A model generated the notes under the pieces. That model did not search any database and was not told where the DNA came from. It worked only from the letters and a program-made list of their open reading frames with translations. From Escherichia phage vB-EcoP-XT32: 64,000 bases of DNA. Location of the stretch: the sequence record OR757435. One strand, written 5' to 3'. Both the position numbers and the translations under genes were made by a program. The stretch's first letter is position 1. Each line of letters begins with the position of its first letter. Shown piece after piece: positions 3,303 through 58,165 of the stretch.

Positions 3303-3692
3303 TTATTCCCTAGAGCTATTATCGAACACTAAATCACCACAATACATAGGATTGGCATACCATTTTGGCACCCCTTCGCTCTTACTCTGAAAGTAAGTCC
3401 CACTATACAGAGGAACATAATTCTTCTTAAGGGCACGTTTAGCAAGTCGCTCGCTTTCTCCAATGGTTTGCCTAGTCATCGGATTTTTATCACGAACCAG
3501 CTTTACATAACGTTTATAAGGTTTCTCCTGTTTTAATAGTACCGGAATCCACTCAAACTGGTTCTTTTGTCTTATCACCTGTTCAGCGGTCAGTTTTCGT
3601 TGAGCCATTCTATTTATCACGGTATCCGCAACCATAGCTTTACATGCGGTTGGCTGGTCCCCTGCCTCATAATAAATAGTCAATGTCAACAT
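3303..3692 (-). CDS. cell-wall hydrolase, SleB/Hydrolase_2-like
   Basis: IYYEAG...CKAMVADTVINRM, QFEWI and YFQS...WYANP resemble the SleB-type hydrolase signature (IYGEARGE...VA.VI.NR ... QF ... YF.NP). Confidence 0.55.
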   Translation of the reverse strand: MLTLTIYYEAGDQPTACKAMVADTVINRMAQRKLTAEQVIRQKNQFEWIPVLLKQEKPYKRYVKLVRDKNPMTRQTIGESERLAKRALKKNYVPLYSGTYFQSKSEGVPKWYANPMYCGDLVFDNSSRE

Positions 3693-3740
3693 TAGCTGGG
3701 CCGTTGTTATCAGAACTTGCTACCTCCTGTTTTACGGGCA

Positions 3741-3770
3741 TAAAAAAGCCCCAGCCGTAGCCGGGGCAAA
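3741..3770 (-). terminator. rho-independent terminator (minus strand)
   Basis: Minus-strand RNA GCCCCGGC-uacg-GCUGGGGC (8-bp stem with one G-U) followed by UUUUUA. Confidence 0.6.
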
Positions 3771-3932
3771 CCTGAAAGCAATACATGACTATTGCAGTAA
3801 AAACACTCGTAAATGCGCTTACGGCAACGACAAAAGCCGCTCAAAGGCGGCTATGCGGAAGCTTCAAATGGGGAGAAGGCACGACGCGATAGAAAGAGCG
3901 TCATAGTACTAAAAGAGGGGACTATATTCCTA

Positions 3933-4376: not shown

Positions 4377-4445
4377 AATCTTATTCCTTTCAGTGATAAG
4401 TTATATCGGGCAAGCCCATCAAGTCGATAGGCTTGAACAAATAAC

Positions 4446-4655
4446 TTAATCGAGTAAACTAAATGACTTCCAACTGCGTAGCAGGATTGTACCGTCATCC
4501 ATAGCTACACATAATTTTAGTAGTTTCTTATTGGCACTACTCACCGTTGTAATTCTTCCGGTTGTACATTTACCTTTGTTGCTATAAAGATATACTACAC
4601 GACGGCCTAACAAGCGGGAAGGTGCTTTCTTAAATTCTGAAATGTTAGTGATCAT
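4446..4655 (-). CDS. hypothetical protein
   Basis: 69-aa ORF; ATGA start/stop overlap with upstream gene. Confidence 0.4.
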   Translation of the reverse strand: MITNISEFKKAPSRLLGRRVVYLYSNKGKCTTGRITTVSSANKKLLKLCVAMDDGTILLRSWKSFSLLD

Positions 4656-4876
4656 AATGCTTGATACCTTTGAATGTGTTCAATACGGGTGGATTGAGCA
4701 AATGATGCTTTAACAGCCATTTTTCTAACTTCTTCTTTACGCTGATTAGTGTGTACAGTATCCCAATGATTGTTATCACGTTGACGCTGTAATATCTTAC
4801 TACATTTTCGATGATTTCCCGTGCTGCGATGTTTCTCACAAATAGGACACTTGCCAAAATTGCTACTGAATATCAT
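4652..4876 (-). CDS. hypothetical Cys-containing small protein
   Basis: 74-aa ORF, CPICEKH...C motif; ATGA overlaps on both sides. Confidence 0.4.
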   Translation of the reverse strand: MIFSSNFGKCPICEKHRSTGNHRKCSKILQRQRDNNHWDTVHTNQRKEEVRKMAVKASFAQSTRIEHIQRYQAL

Positions 4877-5100
4877 TTTCTTAATCCCAGCTTTCTTAAG
4901 ATACGGCCTAACGTTGTTTCTTGCGTGATAACATAACTAACAGCGTCACGTTCCAACGTTTCAATCTTCATTGGCGACGGATACCATTCACCGGTAATAA
5001 CACATTTACATTCAACGCCATACTTTTTAGATAGGCGGTAATGTTGACCGTTGACAAGATTCCTATAAATCGTGGTATGCGTAATTAACATGATCATCAC
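4873..5100 (-). CDS. hypothetical protein
   Basis: 75-aa ORF; translationally coupled to downstream gene. Confidence 0.4.
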   Translation of the reverse strand: MMIMLITHTTIYRNLVNGQHYRLSKKYGVECKCVITGEWYPSPMKIETLERDAVSYVITQETTLGRILRKLGLRK

Positions 5101-5152
5101 CTTTGATTAGATTCTTTGATTAATGCACTGAATCAATGCACTGATAAAAGAA

Positions 5153-5180
5153 AAGGCGCTACCCGTTAAGATAGCGCCTT
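5153..5180 (-). terminator. rho-independent terminator
   Basis: Perfect 9-bp stem AAGGCGCTA/TAGCGCCTT with 10-nt loop, T-rich tracts on both sides; sits just downstream of 5203..6102. Confidence 0.6.
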
Positions 5181-5202
5181 ATGTTTATTTAGATTGTCTT
5201 AC

Positions 5203-6102
5203 TTATGCCGCCTGACGTGCCGCCATAATCTCAGCCGCTTTACGCAATACTTCTTCCTCTTCTTCTTTCGCAGCTTGTTCGGTACGGATTGCAACTGTTG
5301 AAGAGATACGACCGCGCAGATTATCCAATTTTTCCTGCATTTTTGCGATGGTTGATTCCATTTCATCGGCATATGAATCAAGTGATTCCAGCTCCTTGCT
5401 TGATGCGTTCATCAGATAGTCGACAGAGATCGCTCCCGTTGAAGCCGTGACTTTCTTGATGAGTGAATCAAAGGACTTTTTAACTTTCCCCACTTCTTCA
5501 CTCAAGGCAATAGTATTATCACTGGTAGCGCCGTTGCGCTCATCAGCCAGCAATTTGGCTTCAATACGGATTGCATTCAAGCGTTCAACTAAGGCGTAAA
5601 TATCTTGGTTAAAATCTTCCTTATTTTTCGCCGGGATTTGAAGGTGGGCCGCCACGTTGTCATTGCAACCTTTGTAAAAGTTAGGATTATCGACTTCAAT
5701 TTCACGACCGAGGGCAAAATTTTCGAAAGCATTTGACCAGCGAGCGCGGTTTTGTTCCATTTTGGCCTTAATTTGCGCTTCTTTCGCATCTTCTTTCGCT
5801 TTCGCTTCACCTTCCAGATTAATCCACTTCTTACGCCCATTTGCCGCATCGGTGTTAAACTTGATCGGAGTCAGGAAAGTAATTGCAGTGGCAATCACAT
5901 CCATATCGCGGAAACGTTCGGTTAACAGAAAATCGACCGCCGCCTGCAATACGTCCAGCTTTTTACCATTGCTACGGAAGTGCTGCAAGTGCCCTAACAG
6001 AAAATTAGAAACATCTTGTTTGATCGCCGCGTTATTGCTGCGAATGTTGTTAGCCAGTGCGTTAAAACCAGATTCTTTAACCAGATTAAAAATTTTAGCC
6101 AT
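5203..6102 (-). CDS. hypothetical protein (299 aa), helical and charged
   Basis: Long ORF; start moved from GTG 6111 to ATG 6102 with AGGTGA RBS; no recognisable catalytic motif. Confidence 0.55.
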   Translation of the reverse strand: MAKIFNLVKESGFNALANNIRSNNAAIKQDVSNFLLGHLQHFRSNGKKLDVLQAAVDFLLTERFRDMDVIATAITFLTPIKFNTDAANGRKKWINLEGEAKAKEDAKEAQIKAKMEQNRARWSNAFENFALGREIEVDNPNFYKGCNDNVAAHLQIPAKNKEDFNQDIYALVERLNAIRIEAKLLADERNGATSDNTIALSEEVGKVKKSFDSLIKKVTASTGAISVDYLMNASSKELESLDSYADEMESTIAKMQEKLDNLRGRISSTVAIRTEQAAKEEEEEVLRKAAEIMAARQAA

Positions 6103-6203
6103 GATATTCACCTTTCAATTGTAAGGGCACTATGCCCCGCTCTCTATGAGCTTTTTAAGTCGCCATTGACTTATCGATAATCACTCATTGTTAAGTAATT
6201 ATT

Positions 6204-6251
6204 GATAAGGGGGGCGGTCTTGTCAGGAGTTAACCTTGCCGCCCCCTTATC
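6204..6251. other. long inverted repeat / stem-loop
   Basis: GATAAGGGGGGCGG (6204-6217) pairs with CCGCCCCCTTATC (6239-6251) around a 21-nt loop; not followed by a T-tract. Confidence 0.5.
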
Positions 6252-6924
6252 CGTGGTGTTTCAACTGGTATCTTTAATTAGTCGCTATAAACCAAGCCGA
6301 CCTGATAGCGATGATCAATCACCACAATAAGGCAGTGCGTCCGACTCTAATTAGTTACATTGATGTAACCGTCGGCAATATCGTTTACTTTGCTTTCGCT
6401 CCCGCCTATCCTTTTATATCAGCTCTCTTTCGCTAGTCATCGCCCACTATGGGATACTATTGCGAAAGAGTCACTAACCGCCTATTATTCCGGCGTTTTA
6501 TATCTTTCGGCGAGTTTACTACATAAACCGACTATGTACTTTCATCATAAGACGAATCTCAAGCCGTTCGCATCGTAAACGTTCACACTAAACCTTATTG
6601 TTAAATAGCAATTTGCTACCCTTTAACCATCCCCCGCCGCTCTCAATTGAGCGTTATTTCGTCGGACTTGTCTGCCCTGATTAACTTATTTCACTGTAGC
6701 ACCGTGTTAGCGATGGCCGCCGCTACCCTTAACCGTGGGCGATTAGCTTAAACCGTTGCGTGTACTCAATGAATCCGCTTATCAGTGGTGACGTTTCCAG
6801 TTAAGGGATTGTAAAACTGTTTACCCTGATGGTTTAGGGAGTTTTACGCCGTTTTATCTGGTATGCTTTCCGATGGTTATTATCTTCCAGCATATTTAAC
6901 CGATATATGGGGACGTTTAAATTA

Positions 6925-7558
6925 TTAAAGAGCGGTAAATCTGTCAGCGTGCTTTCTCACGCTACGCAACTGTAAGCCGTTGTTTCGCTTTTCACTGAAG
7001 CGGTGATTTGCCTAGTGAGTACGCTCATTATGGACCATGATGTTTTTGCTGTCAACCGCTTTTTTAATCTTTTTCGTCGTTCCCGCTATTGGGAGGATAT
7101 ATCAACCAGCTTTATTTGATTGAAGATTAAGCGATAAGGCTTAAACTTATGATCCATATTGTTAAAGAGCGTTTTTAGCCTTTTATAGTGTCTGCTAATC
7201 ACTGCATCATTAAAGGCTTACTTATTCATTAACGGGGCGCCTACTCCCGAACTACTCGCTGCACTATGTGCCACCTTTCCCGCGATACGTTGACTTGGGA
7301 ACTAGTTAACGTTGTTTTGTTAACTTGTGGTTAGTATGAACTACCTTAACCACGTTTGCAACCTCTTTTTTATCATCTTCTTTTATTCTTTTCCCTTATC
7401 TCGCTTGAATCTATGCGAAAGGGCAAGATGATAAGTTTTTAAAGAGCGGGGATGTTTCACGTCATCGCTGACTTATGCTCATTATAGGTTAGGCTTTCCA
7501 GTTGTCAAATACTTTTTCAAGTATTTTTTCACTTTCTAGCCTGATTTTTAAAGAGCGG
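6925..7558. repeat. four dispersed copies of TTAAAGAGCG(G) in an ORF-free region
   Basis: Copies at 6925, 7162, 7439 and 7548; two share the longer TTTTTAAAGAGCGGGG. Confidence 0.5.
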
Positions 7559-7844
7559 GGCAATTTCTTGCCTTGTATGTTTTTCATCGTACCCGATGAA
7601 TTGAAGTATACGCCAACCAGTGAGTAATGCAATAGGGCAAAGCAAATTATTTTAAACTTTTTCGTAGAGGAGTAGGTAAAGGAACGCGCACGCGAATAAC
7701 ATACTAAAACAGGCTTGTAAAGCACTATTTGACGCTCTCAGACGCATCACAATGAGCTAAAGGAGGGTAAGGAATACAATCACCTTAGAAATGAGAAAAG
7801 CCTCACTAGGAGGCTTATAGGAAGGATTTAGAGCATCAGATAGA

Positions 7845-8168
7845 CTATCGGCACATACCGGAAAGCACAGGATTACCATTAAGATTAGATTCCGCATCTC
7901 GATAATAGATAATGGCAACCGTTTTCCCATCTTCCGTAGGAACAACCCGAAGAATTGAACCATCTTTCCGGTTATCATAGATTACAGCCTTTAAGCCATT
8001 TTCTAAAGTGATAACCTCAGTAGCGGACCAAGTCTTACCTAAAGCGGTGAGATTTTTAGCACCATTAGAGGCTGTGACCACTCCAATGCTTCCGCATTTC
8101 ATGTATGCGCTAGCACTACCAGCAAACAAAGACAAACCAACAGCCAAGCCAACGATTAACTTCTTCAT
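7845..8168 (-). CDS. exported protein (signal peptide)
   Basis: MKKLIVGLAVGLSLFAGSASA N-terminus; AGGAG RBS. Confidence 0.5.
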   Translation of the reverse strand: MKKLIVGLAVGLSLFAGSASAYMKCGSIGVVTASNGAKNLTALGKTWSATEVITLENGLKAVIYDNRKDGSILRVVPTEDGKTVAIIYYRDAESNLNGNPVLSGMCR

Positions 8169-8247
8169 TTTTAAACTCCTAACATTATGACAGCATAGAA
8201 AAGGCCCATTGCACCGACAATGGTCAAAAAGAACAGGCCCACAAGGA

Positions 8248-8622
8248 TTAAGGATTTACACACTGACCGTTACCGGATTCTACTTCATTCATAGACTCGT
8301 CAAAGAGCGTCAACGACGAGCGCATCAAGTGATCGACCGTGATTTGTTTGCCAGTGGTTTCATTCACTAGCTGAATAGTCTTAGCGTATGATTGTACATG
8401 CTCGAAATCATTTACATGTAAAATAATAACCTTAGGTGACTTTTTACCAGTCGAATAGTTTTCTACAAGGTAGGTACATTGCAAGCCGTCAACCGTAGCA
8501 GGGGAAAATGTTGCAGCCTTAACGCTACCCATAGCTGATAGCAGGACACCCAACAGAAGAACAACCAGAAAAAAGCCTACAACCGTTTTAACGACGAATT
8601 TAATAAACCACATAGTAATCAA
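8248..8622 (-). CDS. membrane-anchored protein
   Basis: N-terminal hydrophobic segment VVGFFLVVLLLGVLLSAMG followed by a soluble domain. Confidence 0.45.
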   Translation of the reverse strand: MITMWFIKFVVKTVVGFFLVVLLLGVLLSAMGSVKAATFSPATVDGLQCTYLVENYSTGKKSPKVIILHVNDFEHVQSYAKTIQLVNETTGKQITVDHLMRSSLTLFDESMNEVESGNGQCVNP

Positions 8623-8802
8623 CCTTCAATAATAAGTTTAAGAATATCGAAAGCGGCAACAATCAATAAATAGTTTAAAGAAATGAAGCCAACGACAAAC
8701 AAAAACAGAAATAACACAACCGGACCTCAAAGGATGTAAGAATAAAGCATATCAGCGACGAATGACGCCACTGTAACAACGAATAAGCACCGCCAAAAAT
8801 AG

Positions 8803-9075
8803 TCATGAATCATCACTGTTACCCTCACCAAAAACTGCTACGCTAAGTAGTTCGATCTCTTCCAGAGAAAGGAGAATCCCACGTTGCGCCAGATACTGAC
8901 CTGCTATAACGTCATCCATGATTAGAGCAACGGCAGGAAATTCAACCGCATTAGTCTTATCGCCACTAGTAAACAGGATTAAACACATGTCAGAGTTATC
9001 AGTGTATGAGAAATCAATCTCACCATAGTTATGAGTCGGGATGGTAAAGCTGTACTCTTTAGCCATTAAGACCAC
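8803..9075 (-). CDS. hypothetical protein
   Basis: 90-aa ORF in the co-directional gene array. Confidence 0.4.
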   Translation of the reverse strand: MVLMAKEYSFTIPTHNYGEIDFSYTDNSDMCLILFTSGDKTNAVEFPAVALIMDDVIAGQYLAQRGILLSLEEIELLSVAVFGEGNSDDS

Positions 9076-9275
9076 TCCTTATTGTATTTGAGCATAGATA
9101 CATATTCAGGGCCGGATAAAGTGCCGCCTAAATAAGCAACCGTAATTCGTGCGCTAAATTCCGAAAGGTTGCACAATATGGCAAGCGGTACACGACTTTC
9201 ACCGCGACTACTTGCAACTGACACAACATTATCAAAGATAGTTACGCTATCATTAACAACAACGCCATTGACCAT
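9066..9275 (-). CDS. hypothetical protein
   Basis: 69-aa ORF, short overlap with neighbour. Confidence 0.35.
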   Translation of the reverse strand: MVNGVVVNDSVTIFDNVVSVASSRGESRVPLAILCNLSEFSARITVAYLGGTLSGPEYVSMLKYNKEWS

Positions 9276-9286
9276 GAATCAATCCC

Positions 9287-9538
9287 TCACCATTTAGGCA
9301 AATCAATCTCAAGAAGACCAGAAAGCGACAAATCACCGTCAACATAGATTGATCGGAAGTCATCGCGATTAATATCAATGCGCACCAATTGAAGCCATTT
9401 TTTGGCCTCGTTAAAACTCATGGAACAAAAAGCAACGGCAGGGATTATCACATCATCTTCTTTCAAGCTGAACGCAATAAAAGTATCACAAACAAAACAA
9501 GAAAACCCGCTAGATAATTTAACTTCTTTGATAGCCAT
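9287..9538 (-). CDS. hypothetical protein
   Basis: 83-aa ORF. Confidence 0.4.
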   Translation of the reverse strand: MAIKEVKLSSGFSCFVCDTFIAFSLKEDDVIIPAVAFCSMSFNEAKKWLQLVRIDINRDDFRSIYVDGDLSLSGLLEIDLPKW

Positions 9539-9564
9539 GTTTTACACTCCCAAGAATAGGTTAT

Positions 9565-10056
9565 TTATTTACTGGCCTTGATGCAGTTGGCTAGATTAAC
9601 GTGAACAGTGTAAACAGCATTATCAGCGTTATTGTAAACAGTGGTAGCAATCATCGACTCATTGACCGGACCGTAGCTCACAAGATTGGTAACAGCTTTA
9701 ACGTCTTCATAACGTTGTACAGTGCCGAACGTCACCATATCCGCATCATTATCAGCACGCTTGAGTACCAGATCACTGTTAGGCTGACCGTCCAACGTCT
9801 TAGATTGAAAGAGAACGCCTTCATTTGTTACGTTACTAAATTTCATCTTTAACGCGATGGTATTGCCGTCACTATCCGCACCGTTGCAAATCATCCAACC
9901 TTTATTAATGGAACTAGCGAAAACATCAGCGGCATTAGTTGCAGGAGCTGGACTAGCGATAGCCTTATCAGAAAGAGATGTTACCAGTGCACTAACACCG
10001 ATCGCGGCAACCAGTACATAGCTTGCCAGATTAACTACCTGCATTACCTTAGCCAT
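9565..10056 (-). CDS. exported protein (signal peptide), first gene of the leftward block
   Basis: ATG with GAGGA RBS; hydrophobic N-terminus LASYVLVAAIGVSALVTS. Confidence 0.5.
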   Translation of the reverse strand: MAKVMQVVNLASYVLVAAIGVSALVTSLSDKAIASPAPATNAADVFASSINKGWMICNGADSDGNTIALKMKFSNVTNEGVLFQSKTLDGQPNSDLVLKRADNDADMVTFGTVQRYEDVKAVTNLVSYGPVNESMIATTVYNNADNAVYTVHVNLANCIKASK

Positions 10057-10360
10057 TTGTGAATCCTCATTGATGTGTATTTGGTTTCATGTTTCACAAG
10101 ATAGCACGTATTTCTCTTTTATACGTAGGGCCATTGCTCAGTTGGCCTCTTCACTGACTCGATAGTGTTCCAGCTTTCACCAGTCAATCGCAGAGTCCTT
10201 ATCTTTAAACATTCTCCACTACTTAGGACGATTATCCTTCATGGAGCTTACTACCATCTAGCTACTTTGCATCACTGCTTCGCTTCGATGAATACAATTT
10301 ACTACTTCTTAATAAAGAAAGCAAGTCCTACGGGTAAAATATTTCTACTATCTCTATAGG

Positions 10361-10845
10361 ACGGGGAACATACAACCGCAGGACAGACCACGGGGGAACA
10401 TTGCCAGATAGTGCGGTAATAATATACCACTTAAATAATTGTATAACTCAAACATCAAACGTTAAAAGAAAAAGACCAACAGAACGCTGAAAAAGGAAAG
10501 GAATAAACATCAATAAAAACAATCATTCTTAAAAGAATTATTAAAAGAAATATAATCATCCACTTAATTAATACATACATCATTATTGCACTCATAATAA
10601 CAACTATTGAAACTATTTACATTCAAACTATGGGGGAAGTGGGTAGTACAACACTGACGTTGTTGGTAACTAGGGGGTATTATATCGCCTATTCATAGTG
10701 CCTTAATCTAATCATTATCAGACCTATATCAGTGACTAGCCTTTCATCCATTCAGTAAAGGGGAACTAAATAAACGGGTAGGTAATGTATTGGGTAGTAT
10801 ACACGGGGGAATAATTACGGGGAGTAGGCACGGGGAAAGGTTGGA
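10361..10845. repeat. cluster of short G-rich direct repeats ACGGGG(G)AA / GGGTAG flanking an A-rich tract
   Basis: acggggaacat (10361), acgggggaacatt (10391), tgggggaag (10630), aggggaac (10760), acgggggaa (10803), acggggag (10818), acggggaaag (10831); extreme A-richness at 10400-10620. Confidence 0.45.
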
Positions 10846-10990
10846 ACGTGGAAGAAGGTGTAAAGGCATTGCCAATAACCATTTTTTATTTGAGGACTCC
10901 CCCTTTTTAACAATTCGCCGCAGAGGGCCTAGCCCCACTCGGTCAAATCAGAATTTTGAACTGTTATATATAAGCTTAAGAGAGAACTTA

Positions 10991-11152
10991 ATGAATCTAA
11001 TTAAAGTATTTAGACGGATGAAGTGTAAGCACAATTACTACCTTCTTCGTAAAGCTTACGGGGATGAAAGAATACACGGTCTCTACCTATCAACATGGAA
11101 GTGTAAGGAATGTGGTAAGTTGAGATTCAGTACGTGGGTGGATAGGTCTTAA
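10991..11152 (+). CDS. hypothetical zinc-ribbon-like small protein (53 aa)
   Basis: ATG at 10991 with AAGAGAG upstream; C-K-H ... C-K-E-C motif; upstream part of track ORF 10790..11152 overlaps the repeat region and is probably non-coding. Confidence 0.3.
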   Translation: MNLIKVFRRMKCKHNYYLLRKAYGDERIHGLYLSTWKCKECGKLRFSTWVDRS

Positions 11153-11223
11153 TGGAAATAATCTTTTGGTTAGTAATAGTCTTCTGTTTATTCATCTGCT
11201 TCTCTATAGCAAGATGTATCAAG

Positions 11224-11360
11224 TATGACTAATGACATGGCCTTAACATGAGGGTGCCTTTATGACATGCCCTTTACTTCAGAGTACACGGGTTGTTAGT
11301 ATGAGGTAGTCATCTTTGATGACGTGGCCTTTACGGGTTAGATATGACTAGCCCTTTATA
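11224..11360. repeat. iteron-like array: 4-5 direct copies of ATGAC-NN-G(G/C)CCTTTA(C/T)
   Basis: atgacatggccttaac (11232), ggtgcctttatgac (11254), atgacatgccctttac (11263), atgacgtggcctttac (11319), atgactagccctttat (11344); ends 24 nt before the first rightward gene. Confidence 0.55.
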
Positions 11361-11383
11361 CTCTTATTCAGAGGAGAAGAGTT

Positions 11384-11638
11384 ATGAATTTAGTATTAGA
11401 CTTTTTATCAGAGATAGTGCCTCGGTTCAGAACGGAGACATACGCTTTCGTAGTCAATAGTGACTCTGAAGATGGGATGGAAGCTACATGCTTAGGTCGT
11501 CTTGTTGACCTAGATGATGAAACAGATTTCGATATTACCATTGATGTGAGTAGCTTAGGTTGGCTCTTCTTTAGAGCATTCTGCACTTACAAAGTAGAAA
11601 CGTATAAAGATTACAGCAAGGGAGAGACAGATGAATAA
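11384..11638 (+). CDS. hypothetical acidic protein
   Basis: 84-aa ORF with GAGGAGAAG RBS; first gene of the rightward block. Confidence 0.5.
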   Translation: MNLVLDFLSEIVPRFRTETYAFVVNSDSEDGMEATCLGRLVDLDDETDFDITIDVSSLGWLFFRAFCTYKVETYKDYSKGETDE

Positions 11639-12263
11639 TCAAATAATCGCACGTAACATGGAAGGTATTTATGGAGGTAGTTTCCCTTCTGGCTCTCCTT
11701 TCCACACCCAAGCGATGGACCTTAACGAGTATAATTCACAGCTATGTCGCTCTGGTTGTAGCTTACAACATTTAGAAACTATGGGAAACATCTCAGGACT
11801 GGCTGTACAAGATTTGTATAGTGGAAGTATTCTTAAACCAAATATTACGGAGAACAAAAACATGTTAGATTTGATTCATACTACTCGCCCTAACTCTAAA
11901 ACTAAAACACAACCATCTACTCTGGAAGTAGTTGAATATGAATCTACTAAACATGATCACCTTCCTGACTATGCTCGTGCAATGATTGAGATGATTGAAG
12001 AAGCTGAATATGAAATGCTCCATGATTACATTACCTCTAAAGATGAATGGCATCGTGATGTTCGAATCGAAGAAGATGGTACAGAAACAATTACGTGGAT
12101 TCACAAGAGTGAGTTAGTAGACGACGCACTGCGAGACTACGAAAAATTTTTGGTCGACGGCTCTATTCTTTTAGAGGAAGAGAAGGGTGTAGAACTTCCG
12201 TGGGAGGGTGAGATAGTTACTTTAGGTAAGATGTTTAACCTGTCCGTTGGTGATTGTAAGTAA
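11631..12263 (+). CDS. hypothetical protein
   Basis: 210-aa ORF, GGGAGAG RBS, 8-nt overlap with upstream gene. Confidence 0.5.
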   Translation: MNNQIIARNMEGIYGGSFPSGSPFHTQAMDLNEYNSQLCRSGCSLQHLETMGNISGLAVQDLYSGSILKPNITENKNMLDLIHTTRPNSKTKTQPSTLEVVEYESTKHDHLPDYARAMIEMIEEAEYEMLHDYITSKDEWHRDVRIEEDGTETITWIHKSELVDDALRDYEKFLVDGSILLEEEKGVELPWEGEIVTLGKMFNLSVGDCK

Positions 12264-12267
12264 TGTT

Positions 12268-12290
12268 TGCCTCCCTTGGGAGGCTTTTTG
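12268..12290 (+). terminator. rho-independent terminator
   Basis: GCCTCCC-ttg-GGAGGC followed by TTTTTG directly after the stop of 11631..12263. Confidence 0.6.
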
Positions 12291-12319
12291 TGTTGTTGAT
12301 AATGTAGAAGGAGTATAAA

Positions 12320-12793
12320 ATGTTTGGAGAAAACGGAGAACTCACACCTGCACAGGTAGCTGAGATTACAGGAAGATTACCCGGAGTAACGGAAGAACTT
12401 GAAGGCCGTGGTATGAACCCAAGCAATGGGAAGTTTCAAAAGGGAAATAAATTCGGACGACCCAGAGGTAGTAGAGGTAAACTGACACAATTAATGTTGG
12501 ACCGTGTTGCTGCAAGTCATTTGTCTCCTGATGAAGTGTTAATTCAAATTTACGAAGATCCTAATATTCCACCTGATCTTAGATTCAAGGCTGCATCAAA
12601 AGTTGCAGATCTGGTATATCCTAAGGCGGCCTCTGTTGAAGTTAAGATTGAGGAAGAGAATGTAATTAACGAAGAATCATTGAATGCACAAATCAAGGAC
12701 TTCTTGACTGGAGCACTTGGTATCGACGTTATGCCTCCAGAAGAAGACAACTCTGAGGACGCTGAAAAGGGGGAGGAAGCGGACGAGAGTTAA
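12320..12793 (+). CDS. putative terminase small subunit / DNA-binding protein
   Basis: Immediately upstream of the large terminase; Gly/Lys-rich GKFQKGNKFGRPRGSRGK motif; acidic C-terminus; assignment is positional. Confidence 0.4.
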   Translation: MFGENGELTPAQVAEITGRLPGVTEELEGRGMNPSNGKFQKGNKFGRPRGSRGKLTQLMLDRVAASHLSPDEVLIQIYEDPNIPPDLRFKAASKVADLVYPKAASVEVKIEEENVINEESLNAQIKDFLTGALGIDVMPPEEDNSEDAEKGEEADES

Positions 12794-12954
12794 TTAAAGG
12801 AAACAGGGAGCTGTCGAAGATCATCTGATTAGCAATCTAAGGGTTGTTATAGTTTTATTGCCACGATGTTCTTTTGCAGTGTACCCTTGTAGTGGAGAGG
12901 GGAGGTTCTTTGACGAAGGGACTTTCCCTTTTCTATTTTTAAACTGGAGGAAGT

Positions 12955-14496
12955 ATGTCATTAGATAAACAAATTTATGAAGCTCTAACTGGTAACAACC
13001 TTAGTGTAGACGAAAAGAAAGCACTATTGAATATGTTGAAAGAGCGTGACCAATGGAGGAAGTATAATAAGATTTTGTCTTTCAAGGCGTATGACTTCCA
13101 AAAGAAATTTTATGCAGCAGGATTGAAGCATCGCTTTAGATTCTTGTGTGCAGCGAACCGTGTTGGTAAATCTTATAGCGAGGCATACGAGTTTGCTTGT
13201 CATGTCACAGGTCGCTACCCAACTTGGTGGACAGGATATAAATTTAAAAGACCTATCTTAGCATGGGCAGTTGGTATTACAGGGGATTCCACAAGGAAAG
13301 TATTGCAAAAGGAATTGTTTGGTACACCTATCGGAAAGGATACAAATTTATTAGGGACAGGTGTCATTCCTCGTGATGCTATCGTCATTGATACGATAGA
13401 ACGAGATGGTAACAAACTTCAAATCGTACAAATCAAACATCAAAATGAGAGAGGAGAGTTTGACGGTTTAAGTACATTAGAATTCCGTTCAACCCAACAG
13501 GGTGAACACACATTGATGGGTGCAACAGTTGACTACATTTGGTTAGACGAAGAAGATCCATACGAGTCTATGGCTATATTCGCACAGTGCGTCACACGTA
13601 CACTCACAACTAAAGGTCTAGTTACAATTACAGCTACACCAGAGAACGGTTTAACTGAACTGGTAGATAAATTTATGAAAGGTGAAGGAGATGAGAACAC
13701 AGGTTCTCTGTATTTCCAGAATGCTTCTTGGTGGGATGCTCATGCAGACCTAGGTGGACACATCACTGACCAAGATATAAAAGATATGACTGAAGGTATT
13801 CCAGCGTGGCAGTTAGAGATGCGTTCAAAAGGTATGCCATTGTTAGGAAGTGGTTTGATATATGATGTATCGGATGACACAATTAAATGTGAACCATTCG
13901 AAATTCCTGATACGTGGAAACGTGTCTGTGCAATTGATATTGGTATTGATCACCCAACTGCTGCTGTTTGGACAGCTTACGATGCAAACACGGATACTAT
14001 CTATGTTTACGACTCATATAAAGAAGGTGGCTTTACTCCAGTGTATCATGCTCCAGCTATTAATGGTCGTGGTCAGTGGATTCCTGTCATCCTACCGCAT
14101 GATGCGGACAATACTGAGAAAGGTAGTGGCTCATCTGTTGCTCAATTCTATAAGAATGCAGGAGTTAACGTACAGAGTGAGACCTTCTACAACAAAATTG
14201 GAATGGATGGTAAAAAGAACTTCTTTGTAGAACCGGGAATCACAGATATCCGAGAAAGAATGATGAGTGGACGCTTTAAAGTCTTTAACACAGCCGCTAA
14301 CGCTAAGCTATTCGAAGAGAAAGCTAGATATCACCGTAAGGTTGGTAAGATTATTAAAGAACATGATGACTTAATGGATGCAATGCGCTATTCAGCGTGC
14401 TCTGTTACACATCGTGGTCGCTCTAAGCATGATGTTAGCTACGGAAGCGCTTCTTTGTATGAGGCAAACGTAAGCAGATGGAATCAGAGCTACTAA
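12955..14496 (+). CDS. terminase large subunit
   Basis: 513 aa; Walker-A-like CAANRVGKS near N-terminus, acidic nuclease-like region (DIGIDHPTA ... HDAD); GGAGGAAG RBS. Confidence 0.8.
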   Translation: MSLDKQIYEALTGNNLSVDEKKALLNMLKERDQWRKYNKILSFKAYDFQKKFYAAGLKHRFRFLCAANRVGKSYSEAYEFACHVTGRYPTWWTGYKFKRPILAWAVGITGDSTRKVLQKELFGTPIGKDTNLLGTGVIPRDAIVIDTIERDGNKLQIVQIKHQNERGEFDGLSTLEFRSTQQGEHTLMGATVDYIWLDEEDPYESMAIFAQCVTRTLTTKGLVTITATPENGLTELVDKFMKGEGDENTGSLYFQNASWWDAHADLGGHITDQDIKDMTEGIPAWQLEMRSKGMPLLGSGLIYDVSDDTIKCEPFEIPDTWKRVCAIDIGIDHPTAAVWTAYDANTDTIYVYDSYKEGGFTPVYHAPAINGRGQWIPVILPHDADNTEKGSGSSVAQFYKNAGVNVQSETFYNKIGMDGKKNFFVEPGITDIRERMMSGRFKVFNTAANAKLFEEKARYHRKVGKIIKEHDDLMDAMRYSACSVTHRGRSKHDVSYGSASLYEANVSRWNQSY

Positions 14497-14663
14497 AATC
14501 CTAAGAGTTTCTAGAGAGACTTAGGCCAGAAATTGGTCTTTCTAGTGTAGGGGACAAGCATTCTGGCGGCTTGTTGGGGAGAGTAGGCTACGACCTCCCT
14601 TTTAGTCTTATGGTTAAGAAATTCAGGTGATTTGCTACCTTAAGTGCAGCTAGAAAGAAAAAC

Positions 14664-14696
14664 AAGAGGGGAGGTTTGTCCTCCCTTCTTTTATTT
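14664..14696 (+). terminator. rho-independent terminator/attenuator between terminase and portal
   Basis: AAGAGGGGAGG-tttgt-CCTCCCTTCTT hairpin followed by TTTATTT. Confidence 0.55.
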
Positions 14697-14722
14697 AAGC
14701 TATCAACCGAGGGAGAGAATAG

Positions 14723-16966
14723 ATGGCTAAGCAAAAATATAGTGAAGAGGTGTTGGACGAGTTACGTGTTGACCTTCAACGTCGTTTTAATTACGCTCAA
14801 GGTTACGTTGACATGGCTGTTAAGGGCTATGCTCGTGAAGCTTGGGAATATTTCTATGGTAACTTACCTGCACCAGTAACTGCTGGCAGCTCTAGTTGGG
14901 TAGATCGTACTGTTTGGGAATCCGTTAACGGTACATTGCAAGATATTATTAACGTATTCTGTTCTGGTGATGAAGCAGTTACTTTTGTAGCTGATAACCA
15001 ACAGGACTCTGATGCTGCTGATGTAGCAACTAAACTAGTTAACCAAATTCTTCTGCGTGACAATCCGGGATACAATATTATCTCCTCTGCTGCACAAGAA
15101 TGTCTAGTTACTCGTAACTCTTTTATCAAGTATTATTGGGATGAGCACACTTCTACTCAAACTGAAGAAGCTGAAGGTGTACCACCGGAAGCGTTGGCTG
15201 CATATGTTCAGGGATTAGAAGCTGGTGGACTCAAGAATCTGGAAATCTTCACTGAAGAAAATGAAGACGGTACAGTAGATGTTAAAGTTACTTATGAACA
15301 AACTGTTAAACGTGTGAAAGTTGAATATGTTCCTTCAGAGCAAATCTTTGTTGATGAACATGCTACCTCTTTTGCAGATGCACAATATTTCTGTCATCGT
15401 GTACGTCGTTCTAAAGAAGATCTGGTTGCTATGGGCTTCCCTAAAGATGAGATTGAAGCATTTAATGACTGGACAGACACGATGGATACCACTCAATCTA
15501 CAGTTGCTTGGTCTCGTACTGACTGGCGTCAGGACATTGATGCTGACATTGGCACAGATACTGAAGATATCGCTACTATGGTTTGGGTTTATGAGCACTA
15601 CATCCGTACTGGTGTTCTAGATAAGAATAAAGAATCTAAACTCTATCAGGTTATTCAAGCTGGTGAGCATATCCTTCACACTGAAGAAGTAACTCACATT
15701 CCGTTTGTAACCTTCTGTCCGTATCCGATTCCGGGTTCCTTCTATGGTCAGTCAGTCTATGACATTACGAAAGATATTCAGGATTTACGTACCGCGTTAG
15801 TTCGTGGTTATATTGATAACGTCAACAATGCTAACTATGGTCGATACAAAGCTCTTGTTGGTGCATACGATCGTCGCTCTCTGCTTGATAACCGTCCCGG
15901 TGGAGTGGTTGAAATGGAACGTCAGGACGCTATCGACCTGTTCCCATACCATAACCTACCTCAAGGTATTGATGGCCTCCTAGGTATGTCTGAGGAGCTT
16001 AAAGAGACACGTACTGGTGTAACTAAACTTGGCATGGGTATCAACCCTGATGTGTTTAAGAACGATAACGCTTATGCAACCGTAGGCTTGATGATGAATG
16101 CTGCACAGAACCGTCTCCGTATGGTATGTCGTAACATTGCTCACAATGGTATGGTTGAATTGATGCGTGGTATTTATAGCCTTATCAGAGAAAATGGTGA
16201 AGTTCCTATTGAGGTACAAACCCCTCGTGGTATGGTTCAGGTAAATCCGAAACAATTACCAGCTCGTCACAATCTTCAAGTTGTTGTAGCTATCTCTCCT
16301 AATGAAAAAGCAGAACGTGCACAGAAACTGATTAGCTTGAAGCAGCTGATTGCAGCAGATGCACAGTTAGCACCTCTCTTCGGTTTGGAGCAAGACCGTT
16401 ACATGACTGCACAGATCTTTGAGTTGATGGGTATTAAAGACACTCACAAATACCTACTGCCTCTGGAACAGTATCAGCCTCCTGAGCCGTCTCCGATGGA
16501 AATCCTCCAGCTCGAGATGACTAAAGCACAGGTTGAGAACGTACAGGCTTCTTCTCAGAAGATGATTGCTGATGCATTCGACCAGCGTGAACGTACTACA
16601 TTCGAACAGCAGAAAGCTGCGGATGAATTAAGTCTGCGTCAGGAAGAGTTGCAGTTCAAGCAAGAAAATGCAGCAGATGCTATGACTCTGGAAAACCGTA
16701 AAGAAGATAACAATGCAACTCTGGAACAAGCTAAGCACAAGTTAGCTCTTATGCAACAGCAGGTCCGTCAGTATGAGTCTGTACTGAAAGAATTGCAGAT
16801 GGTTATGGAACATCAGGTTGACCAAGAGAAGATTGTTCAGCAATCTCGTGTTCAGGATAAAACTTTGGAACTCCAGAAGAAAGAAGCAAATGTAACTAAG
16901 AAAGAGCAACAAGCTTCTCTCAAAGATTCACGGATTCCAGGCAAACGTCTTGGAAGTAAAAAGTAA
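14723..16966 (+). CDS. portal protein (putative), with C-terminal coiled-coil extension
   Basis: 747-aa ORF directly after the terminase and before scaffold/capsid; C-terminal 200 aa Q/E/K-rich coiled coil; assignment by synteny and size. Confidence 0.65.
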   Translation: MAKQKYSEEVLDELRVDLQRRFNYAQGYVDMAVKGYAREAWEYFYGNLPAPVTAGSSSWVDRTVWESVNGTLQDIINVFCSGDEAVTFVADNQQDSDAADVATKLVNQILLRDNPGYNIISSAAQECLVTRNSFIKYYWDEHTSTQTEEAEGVPPEALAAYVQGLEAGGLKNLEIFTEENEDGTVDVKVTYEQTVKRVKVEYVPSEQIFVDEHATSFADAQYFCHRVRRSKEDLVAMGFPKDEIEAFNDWTDTMDTTQSTVAWSRTDWRQDIDADIGTDTEDIATMVWVYEHYIRTGVLDKNKESKLYQVIQAGEHILHTEEVTHIPFVTFCPYPIPGSFYGQSVYDITKDIQDLRTALVRGYIDNVNNANYGRYKALVGAYDRRSLLDNRPGGVVEMERQDAIDLFPYHNLPQGIDGLLGMSEELKETRTGVTKLGMGINPDVFKNDNAYATVGLMMNAAQNRLRMVCRNIAHNGMVELMRGIYSLIRENGEVPIEVQTPRGMVQVNPKQLPARHNLQVVVAISPNEKAERAQKLISLKQLIAADAQLAPLFGLEQDRYMTAQIFELMGIKDTHKYLLPLEQYQPPEPSPMEILQLEMTKAQVENVQASSQKMIADAFDQRERTTFEQQKAADELSLRQEELQFKQENAADAMTLENRKEDNNATLEQAKHKLALMQQQVRQYESVLKELQMVMEHQVDQEKIVQQSRVQDKTLELQKKEANVTKKEQQASLKDSRIPGKRLGSKK

Positions 16967-56952: not shown

Positions 56953-57447
56953 NNNNNNNNNNNNNNNNNNNNNNNNNNNNNNNNNNNNNNNNNNNNNNNN
57001 NNNNNNNNNNNNNNNNNNNNNNNNNNNNNNNNNNNNNNNNNNNNNNNNNNNNNNNNNNNNNNNNNNNNNNNNNNNNNNNNNNNNNNNNNNNNNNNNNNNN
57101 NNNNNNNNNNNNNNNNNNNNNNNNNNNNNNNNNNNNNNNNNNNNNNNNNNNNNNNNNNNNNNNNNNNNNNNNNNNNNNNNNNNNNNNNNNNNNNNNNNNN
57201 NNNNNNNNNNNNNNNNNNNNNNNNNNNNNNNNNNNNNNNNNNNNNNNNNNNNNNNNNNNNNNNNNNNNNNNNNNNNNNNNNNNNNNNNNNNNNNNNNNNN
57301 NNNNNNNNNNNNNNNNNNNNNNNNNNNNNNNNNNNNNNNNNNNNNNNNNNNNNNNNNNNNNNNNNNNNNNNNNNNNNNNNNNNNNNNNNNNNNNNNNNNN
57401 NNNNNNNNNNNNNNNNNNNNNNNNNNNNNNNNNNNNNNNNNNNNNNN
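56953..57447. other. assembly gap (495 N)
   Basis: Continuous run of n characters. Confidence 1.
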
Positions 57448-57556
57448 GTTTCTTAGCAATACGAGCCTCTTTGCGAGTGTCAAACAATTTGATGCTATCT
57501 TTTCTCGTGTGTTGATCAAGATCCCAAACAACACGAATCGCCCACATCTTTTTCAT
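57448..57556 (-). CDS. hypothetical small protein (MKKxW family), 3' end lost in assembly gap
   Basis: N-terminal MKKMWAIRVVWDLDQHTRKDSIKLFDTRKEARIAKK then N-run. Confidence 0.35.
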
Positions 57557-57765
57557 TAGTAATGTACCTTTCCGCTGATATAAACACGACCAGAAGAATA
57601 CTCCTTGGCCTTATGGATACTGATACTATTGACCACGTCACCAGTAAGCATAGTCTTTTTAAAATCTCGAGCCTGTTGACGAGTAGGAAGTGCAGTCATA
57701 GTCATACCACCTGATGCCCACTTAATCTTTGCTAACCAAAACTGTCTCATAGTGATTGGTCTCAT
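57556..57765 (-). CDS. hypothetical small protein (MKKxW family)
   Basis: 69-aa ORF; ...TRQQARDFKK motif. Confidence 0.4.
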   Translation of the reverse strand: MRPITMRQFWLAKIKWASGGMTMTALPTRQQARDFKKTMLTGDVVNSISIHKAKEYSSGRVYISGKVHY

Positions 57766-57962
57766 TAATAATAAACCTTGCTGTTGGCAAAAAGAGCACC
57801 TTCGTTATTCACAATAGCTTTTCCTATTGTAACCTTATTGAGTCTAAAAGTAGACTTGTATTGGTTTTTGACCCTACGGGCGTGTTCTCGAGTGTTAATA
57901 AAATCTACAGCTACCAAGTCTCCAGTCGTATCATCATGTACACGAACAATCCACTTTTTCAT
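57765..57962 (-). CDS. hypothetical small protein (MKKxW family)
   Basis: MKKWIVRVHDD ... NTREHARRVKNQ. Confidence 0.4.
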   Translation of the reverse strand: MKKWIVRVHDDTTGDLVAVDFINTREHARRVKNQYKSTFRLNKVTIGKAIVNNEGALFANSKVYY

Positions 57963-58165
57963 TTTACTAAACCCTTCATATAGTTATAAAGATCGTTAGA
58001 GGCTTTACCCCATTCAAGGTGCTTCTTATCCATATAGCTCTTACAAGCTTCTTTACTGCTTTCGACGCATATATCAAATTGATGACATGCTCGACCAAAT
58101 GTCATAGCTTTTAATTGAACCTCGGTAGTCAAACCTTTCAGTTCTTGGAACTCTTCTTCAGTCAT
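57959..58165 (-). CDS. hypothetical protein
   Basis: 68-aa ORF, ATGA overlap with neighbour. Confidence 0.4.
   Translation of the reverse strand: MTEEEFQELKGLTTEVQLKAMTFGRACHQFDICVESSKEACKSYMDKKHLEWGKASNDLYNYMKGLVK

Follow-up and report, generated by a model that had tools for sequence, protein, structure and literature searches.

A genome-unique array of direct repeats near the left end of a Kuravirus genome, a candidate recognition site for the small terminase

The cosB segment of phage lambda carries three elements, R3, R2 and R1, which are bound by gpNu1, a small terminase that contains a helix-turn-helix (HTH). Lambda TerS, the small terminase subunit, binds its cos sequence specifically, and pac sites (the pacL and pacR boxes of SPP1, the hexamer repeats of P1 pac) are short repeated motifs near or in terS that serve as landing sites for oligomeric TerS (PMC7672466). 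The TerS of PaP3 is a nonamer whose N-terminal HTH motifs bind DNA sequence-specifically, as proposed in adjacent pairs; its binding experiment used a single 20-mer 'cos' oligonucleotide and no repeat array was described, and DNA recognition by small terminases remains unsettled, with wrapping, threading and interdigitation models in competition (PMC7672466). Here we analyse a stretch of 64,000 nucleotides from Escherichia phage vB-EcoP-XT32 (sequence record OR757435; the whole stretch is hereafter called the window), which carries an array of short direct repeats between positions 11,224 and 11,360, and we ask how this array compares with such systems.

A repeat search returned four 16-nt copies (11231-11246, 11261-11276, 11318-11333 and 11343-11358; 81-100% identity to the reference copy) and a pattern search added a weaker fifth (11248-11262), all five on the + strand. 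Comparison with 12 relatives refined the unit to 15 nt, RTGR-N4-SCCTTWA, which occurs five times in the window, always on the + strand and always within 11232-11358, against 0.43 on average, and never more than 3, per 64 kb in first-order Markov simulations. The 7-nt core, SCCTTWA, has five copies within 130 nt, and 200 simulations gave at most 3. The direct-repeat array described in the initial annotation is therefore real and far above simulation, and searching for its unit elsewhere yielded no further copy, either in the window or in XT18, the closest relative, whose complete genome (77,671 bp) has RTGR-N4-SCCTTWA exactly five times (5/5 in the array). The motif is unique to the array in both, as fits a once-per-genome signal rather than a promoter family. 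Details of that annotation needed correction: the copies are not evenly spaced at about 20-30 bp but start 16, 14, 57 and 25 bp apart, and the gap of 24 nt to a first rightward gene is in fact 25 nt, from the end of the last copy at 11358 to the ATG of gp4 at 11384, with two open reading frames (ORFs) of the same strand (10991-11152 and 11152-11232) preceding 11384. The parts of the array are as follows.

11138-11152, + strand: copy 0, degenerate (GTGGATAGGTCTTAA), at the end of a zinc-ribbon ORF, where it forms the last five codons and the stop; most relatives have a full copy, GTGGATAGGCCTTAA.
11232-11276, + strand: cluster A, three head-to-tail copies (ATGACATGGCCTTAA, ATGAGGGTGCCTTTA, ATGACATGCCCTTTA) starting at 11232, 11248 and 11262, with spacing of 16 and 14 bp.
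11277-11318, + strand: spacer with a conserved element, CTTCAGAGTACACGGGTTGTTAG, and an 18-bp insertion, TATGAGGTAGTCATCTTTG (alignment of relatives).
11319-11358, + strand: cluster B, two copies (ATGACGTGGCCTTTA, ATGACTAGCCCTTTA) starting at 11319 and 11344, 25 bp apart.

The spacer element CTTCAGAGTACACGGGTTGTTAG resembles the ...CATCTATCAGTGTA found 3' of Grimontviridae copies, and the 18-bp insertion is present in the window only, among the aligned relatives. This insertion created a 14-nt inverted repeat (86% complementary; 11218-11231, ATCAAGTATGACTA, and 11307-11320, TAGTCATCTTTGAT) that brackets cluster A.

Arrays of this type are kept in all Gordonclarkvirinae examined (13/13, from Kuravirus, Suseptimavirus and Nieuwekanaalvirus), each with 5-8 copies on the same strand. 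Absence of the repeats from relatives, one of the findings that the initial annotation had named as refuting its reading, was thus not seen. The 43 distinct copies show no variation at positions 10-13 and 15, a strong bias at positions 1-4, 9 and 14, and free variation at positions 5-8. The layout shared by the subfamily is the following.

First cluster: 3-5 copies, same strand, spaced 16, 14, 16 and 14 bp.
Gap between clusters: 38-40 bp; 57 bp in the window and about 180 bp in phiEco32 (insertion).
Second cluster: 2 copies, 16 or 25-27 bp apart; in EP335, 3 copies, 14 and 16 bp apart.
Array end: distance to the gp4 start usually constant.

The alignment of relatives shows whole repeat units gained or lost between phages and cores that do not change, and the position of the array, just inside the left genome end, is constant in Kuravirus. 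Because whole units come and go while the cores stay invariant, the pattern is the signature that would be expected of selection on a repeated binding site, as opposed to coding sequence or neutral duplication. The general idea that these are functional, protein-binding direct repeats thus finds support, as an array that is genome-unique, conserved and retains its motif through turnover of copy number looks like such a site.

The protein that we propose as the binder is encoded about 1 kb to the right, beside the large terminase gene.

12320-12793, + strand: gp6 homolog, a putative TerS of the PaP3/NV1 type and the proposed array binder (profile matches; directly upstream of terL).
12955-14496, + strand: TerL, the large terminase subunit (Pfam Terminase_6N and Terminase_6C; annotations).

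The gp6 gene has about 150 codons and lies immediately 5' of terL. A profile of 28 diverse gp6 homologs matched small terminases in the PDB (7JOQ, E = 0.0019; 6W7T, PaP3 TerS, E = 0.058) over the conserved DP..LR(F/L)KAA..D...E(V/L) oligomerisation core, and the same core was aligned by hhalign between the gp6 homolog profile and LUZ24 gp68, an annotated TerS (E = 0.005). The single gp6 sequence found no match in the PDB, a search of Pfam gave DUF5681 only, below threshold, and in PHROGs gp6 falls into families of unknown function. A TerS assignment was also reached independently by comparison of hidden Markov models in the YF01 paper (PMC9965538). Judged by these profile comparisons, gp6 is probably a TerS of the PaP3 type.

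Homologs of gp6 are present in Grimontviridae and Lahexavirus, preceded on the same strand by arrays of a related motif, TATGAC-NN-SSCATCWA or a variant of it. Most of the 18 lineages checked have such an array, homologous or analogous, at a distance of 80-1100 bp 5' of the terS homolog; in contigs L025 and L038 none was clear. The arrays found, all upstream of terS, were these.

Salmonella 7-11, 1302-1607 (terS at 1750): TATGAnnnSSCATCWA, four copies 26-27 bp apart and a fifth about 210 bp upstream.
Cronobacter A24: TATGAnnnSSCATCWA type, 3 copies.
Salmonella PKM.Hi.22.6: TATGAnnnSSCATCWA type, 3-4 copies.
Proteus P59: ATGACATGGCATCAA and ATGACCTCCCATCTA types, 6 copies.
Aeromonas BUCT695: TATGACCTCTCATCAA, 3 copies.
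Aeromonas LAh_8: TATGAnnRGSCATG, 4-5 copies.
Vibrio Vp_R1 (locus L022): eight head-to-tail copies of the 11-bp TAATGATAGGN (2148-2224), then three of AATGAYAKGGCAT, directly upstream.
IMG/VR contigs with a 66%-identical TerS: GCC(A/C)TTCAT-type repeats within 200 bp of terS.
125-kb IMG/VR contig L045: ATSACCTCCCATCAA, 3-5 copies, about 1.1 kb upstream.
Two metagenome contigs: TATGAnnnGGCATGAAGG, 3-4 copies.

As in XT18, the motif is confined to its array in a distant genome: ATGANNNSSCATC occurs five times in the whole 89.9-kb genome of 7-11 (5/5 in the array). The Kuravirus and Grimontviridae motifs differ at about 3/15 positions, and one copy keeps a downstream extension (...CCCTTTACTTCAGAGTA in Kuravirus, ...CCCATCTATCAGTGTA in Grimontviridae); together, these likenesses argue for common descent of the two sets of arrays. 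A single degenerate regular expression for all lineages is crude (56 matches upstream on the same strand and 17 on the opposite strand, 12 and 7 downstream), and the lineage-specific lists above are more informative. In Vp_R1 the TAATGATAGGN units correspond to the 5' half of the motif in expanded form and recur once per helical turn.

The genes gp1, gp4 and gp5 do not accompany the array in these distant phages. In the window the reading frames between the left genome end and terS are as follows.

10991-11152, + strand: gp1 homolog (phi32_1), 53 aa, with a zinc-ribbon-like CxH...CxxC pattern; PHROG 7696 (unknown function).
11152-11232, + strand: micro-ORF of 26 hydrophobic aa, MEIIFWLVIVFCLFICFSIARCIKYD, between copy 0 and copy 1.
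11384-11638, + strand: gp4 homolog, 84 aa, acidic, of unknown function.
11631-12263, + strand: gp5 homolog, 210 aa, with an intrinsic terminator 3' (12269-12284).

No homolog of gp1, gp4 or gp5 was detectable in the whole 7-11 genome or at the A24, PKM and P59 loci, and an IMG/VR scan with gp4 as the query returned phiEco32 and NJ01 only. TerS (44-49% identity) and TerL (59-65%) were the sole left-end genes tested that have homologs in 7-11, A24, PKM and P59. Since gp1, gp4 and gp5 are absent where the array is kept, the array travels with terS and terL and not with gp1. Within Gordonclarkvirinae gp1 is 52-94% identical, and it has a weak zinc-finger PHROG match (E = 0.006). The micro-ORF is tied to its neighbours by TAATG overlaps, its start with the gp1 stop and its stop with the ATG of repeat copy 1; 4E8 has this micro-ORF too, and phiEco32, Paul and SU10 lack it. 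Left-end gene gp4 is classed early in SU10 (PMC4281155 Table 1), and the gp5 protein was detected in SU10 virions by proteomics (PMC4281155). Many database records, and PHROG 12176 too, call gp5 an 'ABC transporter'; no Pfam domain was found in the protein, and the name has the look of an annotation error passed from record to record.

The surroundings of the array are those of a genome end. Positions 10000-15000 are 95-99.7% identical by megablast to Escherichia phages XT18, XT73, NJ01, 172-1 and SU10, which are Kuravirus (phiEco32-like) podophages of the Gordonclarkvirinae. At least 11 related records with ends determined by experiment or PhageTerm, among them phiEco32, SU10, Paul, YF01, IMEP8, WFI101126, CHD5UKE1, ES17 and 4E8, all start at window position 10738. 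Because the determined ends of relatives start there, we read the 64-kb window as a circularly permuted assembly of a Kuravirus genome, and what had been taken for a divergent junction is the physical end of a linear genome and not a divergent promoter region.

About 10738-10930, strand not applicable: direct terminal repeat (DTR), 193 bp, in single copy in the window, at the left end of the packaged genome (ends of relatives and DTR annotations).

The DTR is annotated at 193 bp in Paul and 206 bp in 4E8, and a length of 192-193 bp is given for the Kuravirus group (PMC9965538, PMC4281155). Between the nearest DTR boundary and the start of the array are 208-300 bp, copy 0 lying about 208 bp from the right boundary. 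Left of the DTR is the right-end unique region with leftward genes, classed early in the literature; to its right come gp1, gp4, gp5, gp6, TerL (12955-14496) and the portal gene (14723-16966). Most early genes sit at the genome end opposite the array (PMC4281155, PMC9965538). The cumulative GC skew reaches its minimum near 10-11 kb, coinciding with the coding-strand switch and the genome ends. The apparent 21% GC of 57001-58000 is explained by a run of N (masked sequence) at 56953-57447.

The two DTR boundaries (10737/10738 and 10930/10931) have CT/AGCC in common, the slash marking the boundary. The left one reads ...GACT/AGCC... (...CAGTGACT/AGCCTTTC) and the right one ...GGCCT/AGCCCC (...GAGGGCCT/AGCCCCAC), and CT/AGCC stands at both boundaries in all relatives checked (phiEco32, Paul, SU10, ES17, IME267, 4E8, XT18, NJ01, PGN6866, Bas94 and TH34), so that these are plausible candidate nicking sites of the terminase. 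The left genome end, AGCCTTT, resembles the repeat core. The terminus was rejected as a complete repeat unit: AGCCTTT is all that it has in common with one, and the upstream RTGR part is unconserved in XT18, PGN6866 and Bas94. A lone core copy, GTGCCTTAAT, lies at 10697-10706, some 35 bp left of the DTR in the right-end unique region, and PGN6866, NJ01 and Bas94 have a similar GCCTTAA or GCCTCAA at the matching position; it may be a flanking site across the concatemer junction, or chance. Inside the DTR (10770-10840) there is a second repeat family of four ACGGG(G/T) elements, the last three of which (TACACGGGGG, TTACGGGGAG, GCACGGGGAA) are 13-14 bp apart. The DTRs of SU7 and TH34 have TAYATGGGTA in place of ACGGG(G/T), and an ACGGGT/ATGGGT element also occurs 3' of array copies (11288, 11333). 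Covariation of the DTR and array-spacer motifs (ACGGGG vs ATGGGT) fits SU7 and TH34 and is broken by 4E8 and IME267, and we do not take it as evidence.

We propose that the array is the recognition site of the small terminase gp6, akin to lambda cosB or a pac site, and assign this reading a probability of roughly 0.5 on the strength of comparative sequence analysis. Late in infection, a ring-shaped TerS oligomer of the PaP3 type would bind five to seven same-strand 15-bp sites, each composed of a conserved ATGA and a conserved SCCTTWA half separated by about one helical turn, with sites every 14/16 bp in the first cluster and 16 or 25-27 bp apart in the second. TerS so bound would tag the phage concatemer at a point 200-430 bp rightward of the terminal repeat and thereby position TerL, which would cut at the CT/AGCC repeat boundaries and package rightwards from the left end. 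We infer the binding of TerS to the array, the need for the array in packaging and the start of packaging at the left end. Because most early genes are at the other end, the right end would enter the cell first and the left end would be packaged first.

Several features fit this proposal: a single cluster with strict polarity near the terS/terL end, co-inheritance with terS across three taxa, tolerance of insertions and a bipartite 15-bp unit present 5-7 times. That terS stays with the array across families, and the genome end in Kuravirus, points to recognition for packaging. A packaging signal tolerates gene insertions between array and terS. The array is not a promoter element of terS, since its distance from that gene varies (about 100-1100 bp) and since, in Kuravirus, terS has its own gp36 promoter, with two genes and a terminator between.

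Other findings weigh against TerS recognition. The TerS assignment is based on weak profile matches (E = 0.002-0.06), and Foldseek with the AlphaFold monomer of gp6 (predicted local distance difference test score, pLDDT, 68, mediocre) returned nothing significant, PaP3 TerS ranking 37th (E = 5). The array is 208-300 bp from the DTR boundary, beyond the cosB-cosN distance of lambda, with a coding gene, gp1, in between, and its proximity to the genome end is seen in Kuravirus only. TerS is one of about 40 core proteins common to these families, and another shared DNA-binding protein could be the one that binds. We know of no use of such repeat arrays in T7-type DTR packaging. Finally, the Kuravirus array is inside a left-end unit that one source classes as early (PMC4281155), and a transcriptional role for it is possible.

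A wider form of the proposal is more tentative, and we would not lean on it. The array might be the first defined recognition element of a PaP3-type TerS in phages with short exact DTRs, an ancient element common to Gordonclarkvirinae, Grimontviridae and Lahexavirus, whose 15-bp bipartite motif would have drifted by lineage (SCCTTWA, SCCATTCAT, SSCATCWA, GGCATG) alongside TerS and whose 14/16-bp paired spacing would match adjacent HTH pairs on the ring. The CT/AGCC cleavage sites at both DTR boundaries (the left end being AGCCTTT, like the core) may be read by the TerS-array complex. If true, this would provide a natural series of matched TerS/site pairs for the reading of tandem sites by a ring terminase and for the generation of terminal repeats.

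Of the explanations that compete with TerS recognition, the one that survives best, although we consider it unlikely, is an operator or roadblock for a phage regulator, such as an autoregulating gp1 or a protein of the middle or late class, which would control gp1-gp4-gp5 by blocking RNA polymerase moving rightward from a DTR-adjacent promoter. The array does sit between gp1 and gp4, inside the unit classed early in SU10 (PMC4281155); in most relatives the gp1 stop lies in its first copy, ~25 nt separate the end of its last copy from the gp4 start, and gp1 combines a CxH...CxxC pattern with its weak zinc-finger match. The repeats, however, are direct and asymmetric, with no dyads, and Grimontviridae keep homologous arrays without homologs of gp1, gp4 or gp5, which also counts against the ORF at 10991-11152 that the initial annotation had put forward as binder. 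Among Gordonclarkvirinae, moreover, gp1 falls to 52-60% identity with the motif unchanged. The operator interpretation offered in that annotation is further disfavoured by the promoter scans, which found neither a sigma-70-like nor a gp36-type promoter in the array. Tandem sigma-70 promoters were rejected because, although ATGACA resembles TTGACA, no -10 element is present at the right distance (scan of 11224-11360 negative). The middle and late promoters that depend on gp36, the phage sigma factor, have tAATGTAtA at -10, G at -37 and A at -34 (PMC12276001; SU10 Table S2). Exact or near matches occur at 10783, 12300, 19987, 35733 and elsewhere in the window, and late gp36 promoters were discarded as the identity of the array, which contains no TAATGTAT match with up to one mismatch. 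The match ahead of terS is the following.

12300-12307, + strand: -10 element TAATGTAG of the gp36 late promoter driving terS; TTGGGAG, upstream of it, contains the G of -37 and the A of -34.

Another exact -10 match, TAATGTAT at 10783-10790, lies inside the DTR and faces rightward, with G at -37 and A at -34 (AAAGGGGAA); its phiEco32 counterpart reads TAATGAAT. Exact matches to TAATGTAT number six in the window, several of the others being at known SU10 promoter positions. The 10783-10790 site may be a late promoter whose transcripts would run through gp1 and the array.

It is improbable that the repeats are replication-origin iterons to which an initiator of phage or host would bind, close to the left end and to the switch of coding strand and GC skew. 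Tandem, same-strand, genome-unique repeats are typical of iteron origins, the cumulative GC-skew minimum falls near 10-11 kb, and DnaA-box clusters occur in the long non-coding left-end region of some distant relatives: A24 (locus L008, 57-231) has three perfect TTATCCACA boxes and 7-11 (locus L007, 907-963) three near-consensus ones in reverse orientation. Such clusters have no counterpart in Kuravirus, and those of the relatives are about 300-1100 bp from their arrays (about 550-1100 bp upstream of the terS-proximal ones) and not conserved with them; in the window the nearest DnaA box (up to one mismatch) is at 12294, ~900 bp off, with none in 4400-12290. The GC-skew switch says little because it coincides with the switch of transcription direction and with the genome ends. 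The array is bordered by gp1 coding sequence or the micro-ORF to its left and by the gp4 ribosome-binding site to its right, and the alignment of relatives shows no conserved AT-rich tract. No Rep-, O- or DnaA-like domain was found in gp1, gp4 or gp5, which are themselves absent from distant phages that keep the array, and no initiator-like gene lies nearby or encloses the repeats. The replication genes here are T7-like (primase/helicase, family A polymerase), and T7-type origins are promoter-based, which we also count against iterons. The origin-iteron suggestion of the initial annotation is accordingly not favoured, as no conserved AT-rich element, no DnaA boxes and no initiator-like gene go with the array.

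Least probable is some other architectural factor, host or phage, acting at the genome ends in DTR duplication, concatemer resolution or ejection control with a reader other than TerS: the constant distance in Kuravirus between array and DTR (about 208 bp, measured from copy 0 to the right boundary) and the ACGGGG/ATGGGT family found both in the DTR and beside array copies speak for it, but the DTR and spacer motifs covary imperfectly, with 4E8 and IME267 as exceptions, the association with terS is the sole conserved link found, and we know of no host-factor consensus recognisable in the repeats. A structured RNA element was rejected, as there was no Rfam match at the gathering threshold in the whole window and the minimum free energy of 11150-11400 is ordinary against shuffles (z = -1.0). 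Mini-ORFs (RTG..CCT-TAA/TTA in frame, for example MTWP*) were likewise rejected; they are not conserved in the Grimontviridae motif and are taken as a by-product of the repeat.

Kuravirus phages (phiEco32, SU10, ES17 and others) are therapy candidates and structural models. Beyond T7 and T3, we know of no recognition site in phages with short exact DTRs. If the array is the TerS site, it would supply a defined packaging signal for phage engineering, for example of transducing particles, natural pairs of site and TerS variants across three taxa for studies of specificity, and a handle on how the 193-bp terminal repeat is made. Even as an operator or origin, the array would remain the principal cis-regulatory landmark at the left end of the genome. 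Repeated sites for a terminase, initiator or regulator are well known as a kind. This array has apparently not been described so far: it goes unmentioned in the SU10, YF01, Privateer and gp79/gp36 structure papers (PMC4281155, PMC9965538, PMC7881722 and PMC12276001; repeat and packaging terms), and an earlier mention, for example in the original phiEco32 papers, is possible.

Compared with known systems, the array resembles lambda-origin and plasmid iterons in having four to seven direct repeats of 15-22 bp in one cluster per genome; unlike them, it has no AT-rich unwinding element, initiator gene or DnaA boxes, and its spacing alternates between 14 and 16 bp where iterons show helical phasing of roughly 22 bp. 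With the pac sites of SPP1 and P1 it shares short repeated motifs close to terS, whereas those phages package by the headful with permuted ends, the ends here are exact, and motif length, number and spacing all differ. PaP3, NV1 and LUZ24 (Bruynoghevirus) have a homologous TerS, and LUZ24 has the same order of DTR, non-coding region, terS and terL; its three direct GGGTATACCTATAGAAC-like repeats between the 184-bp DTR and terS (gp68), with tRNA genes (locus L019, about 3690-3800, minus strand), are unrelated in sequence and do not count as support. In comparison with lambda, the ends are a 193-bp direct terminal repeat instead of 12-nt cohesive ends, the copies are all direct with no IHF site identified where lambda has R3 in the opposite orientation to R2 and R1, with an IHF site between, and the array and the DTR boundary are 208-300 bp apart and have a small gene between them, whereas cosB abuts cosN. 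The TerS class would also differ, PaP3-like here and gpNu1-like in lambda, and binding to the array is predicted from sequence. Like lambda cosB, however, the array has several ~16-bp repeats over ~120-130 bp, is unique in its genome and lies inside the terminase-gene end, upstream of the terminase genes, so that the layout of end, repeats, terS and terL parallels the cosN-cosB-Nu1-A of lambda.

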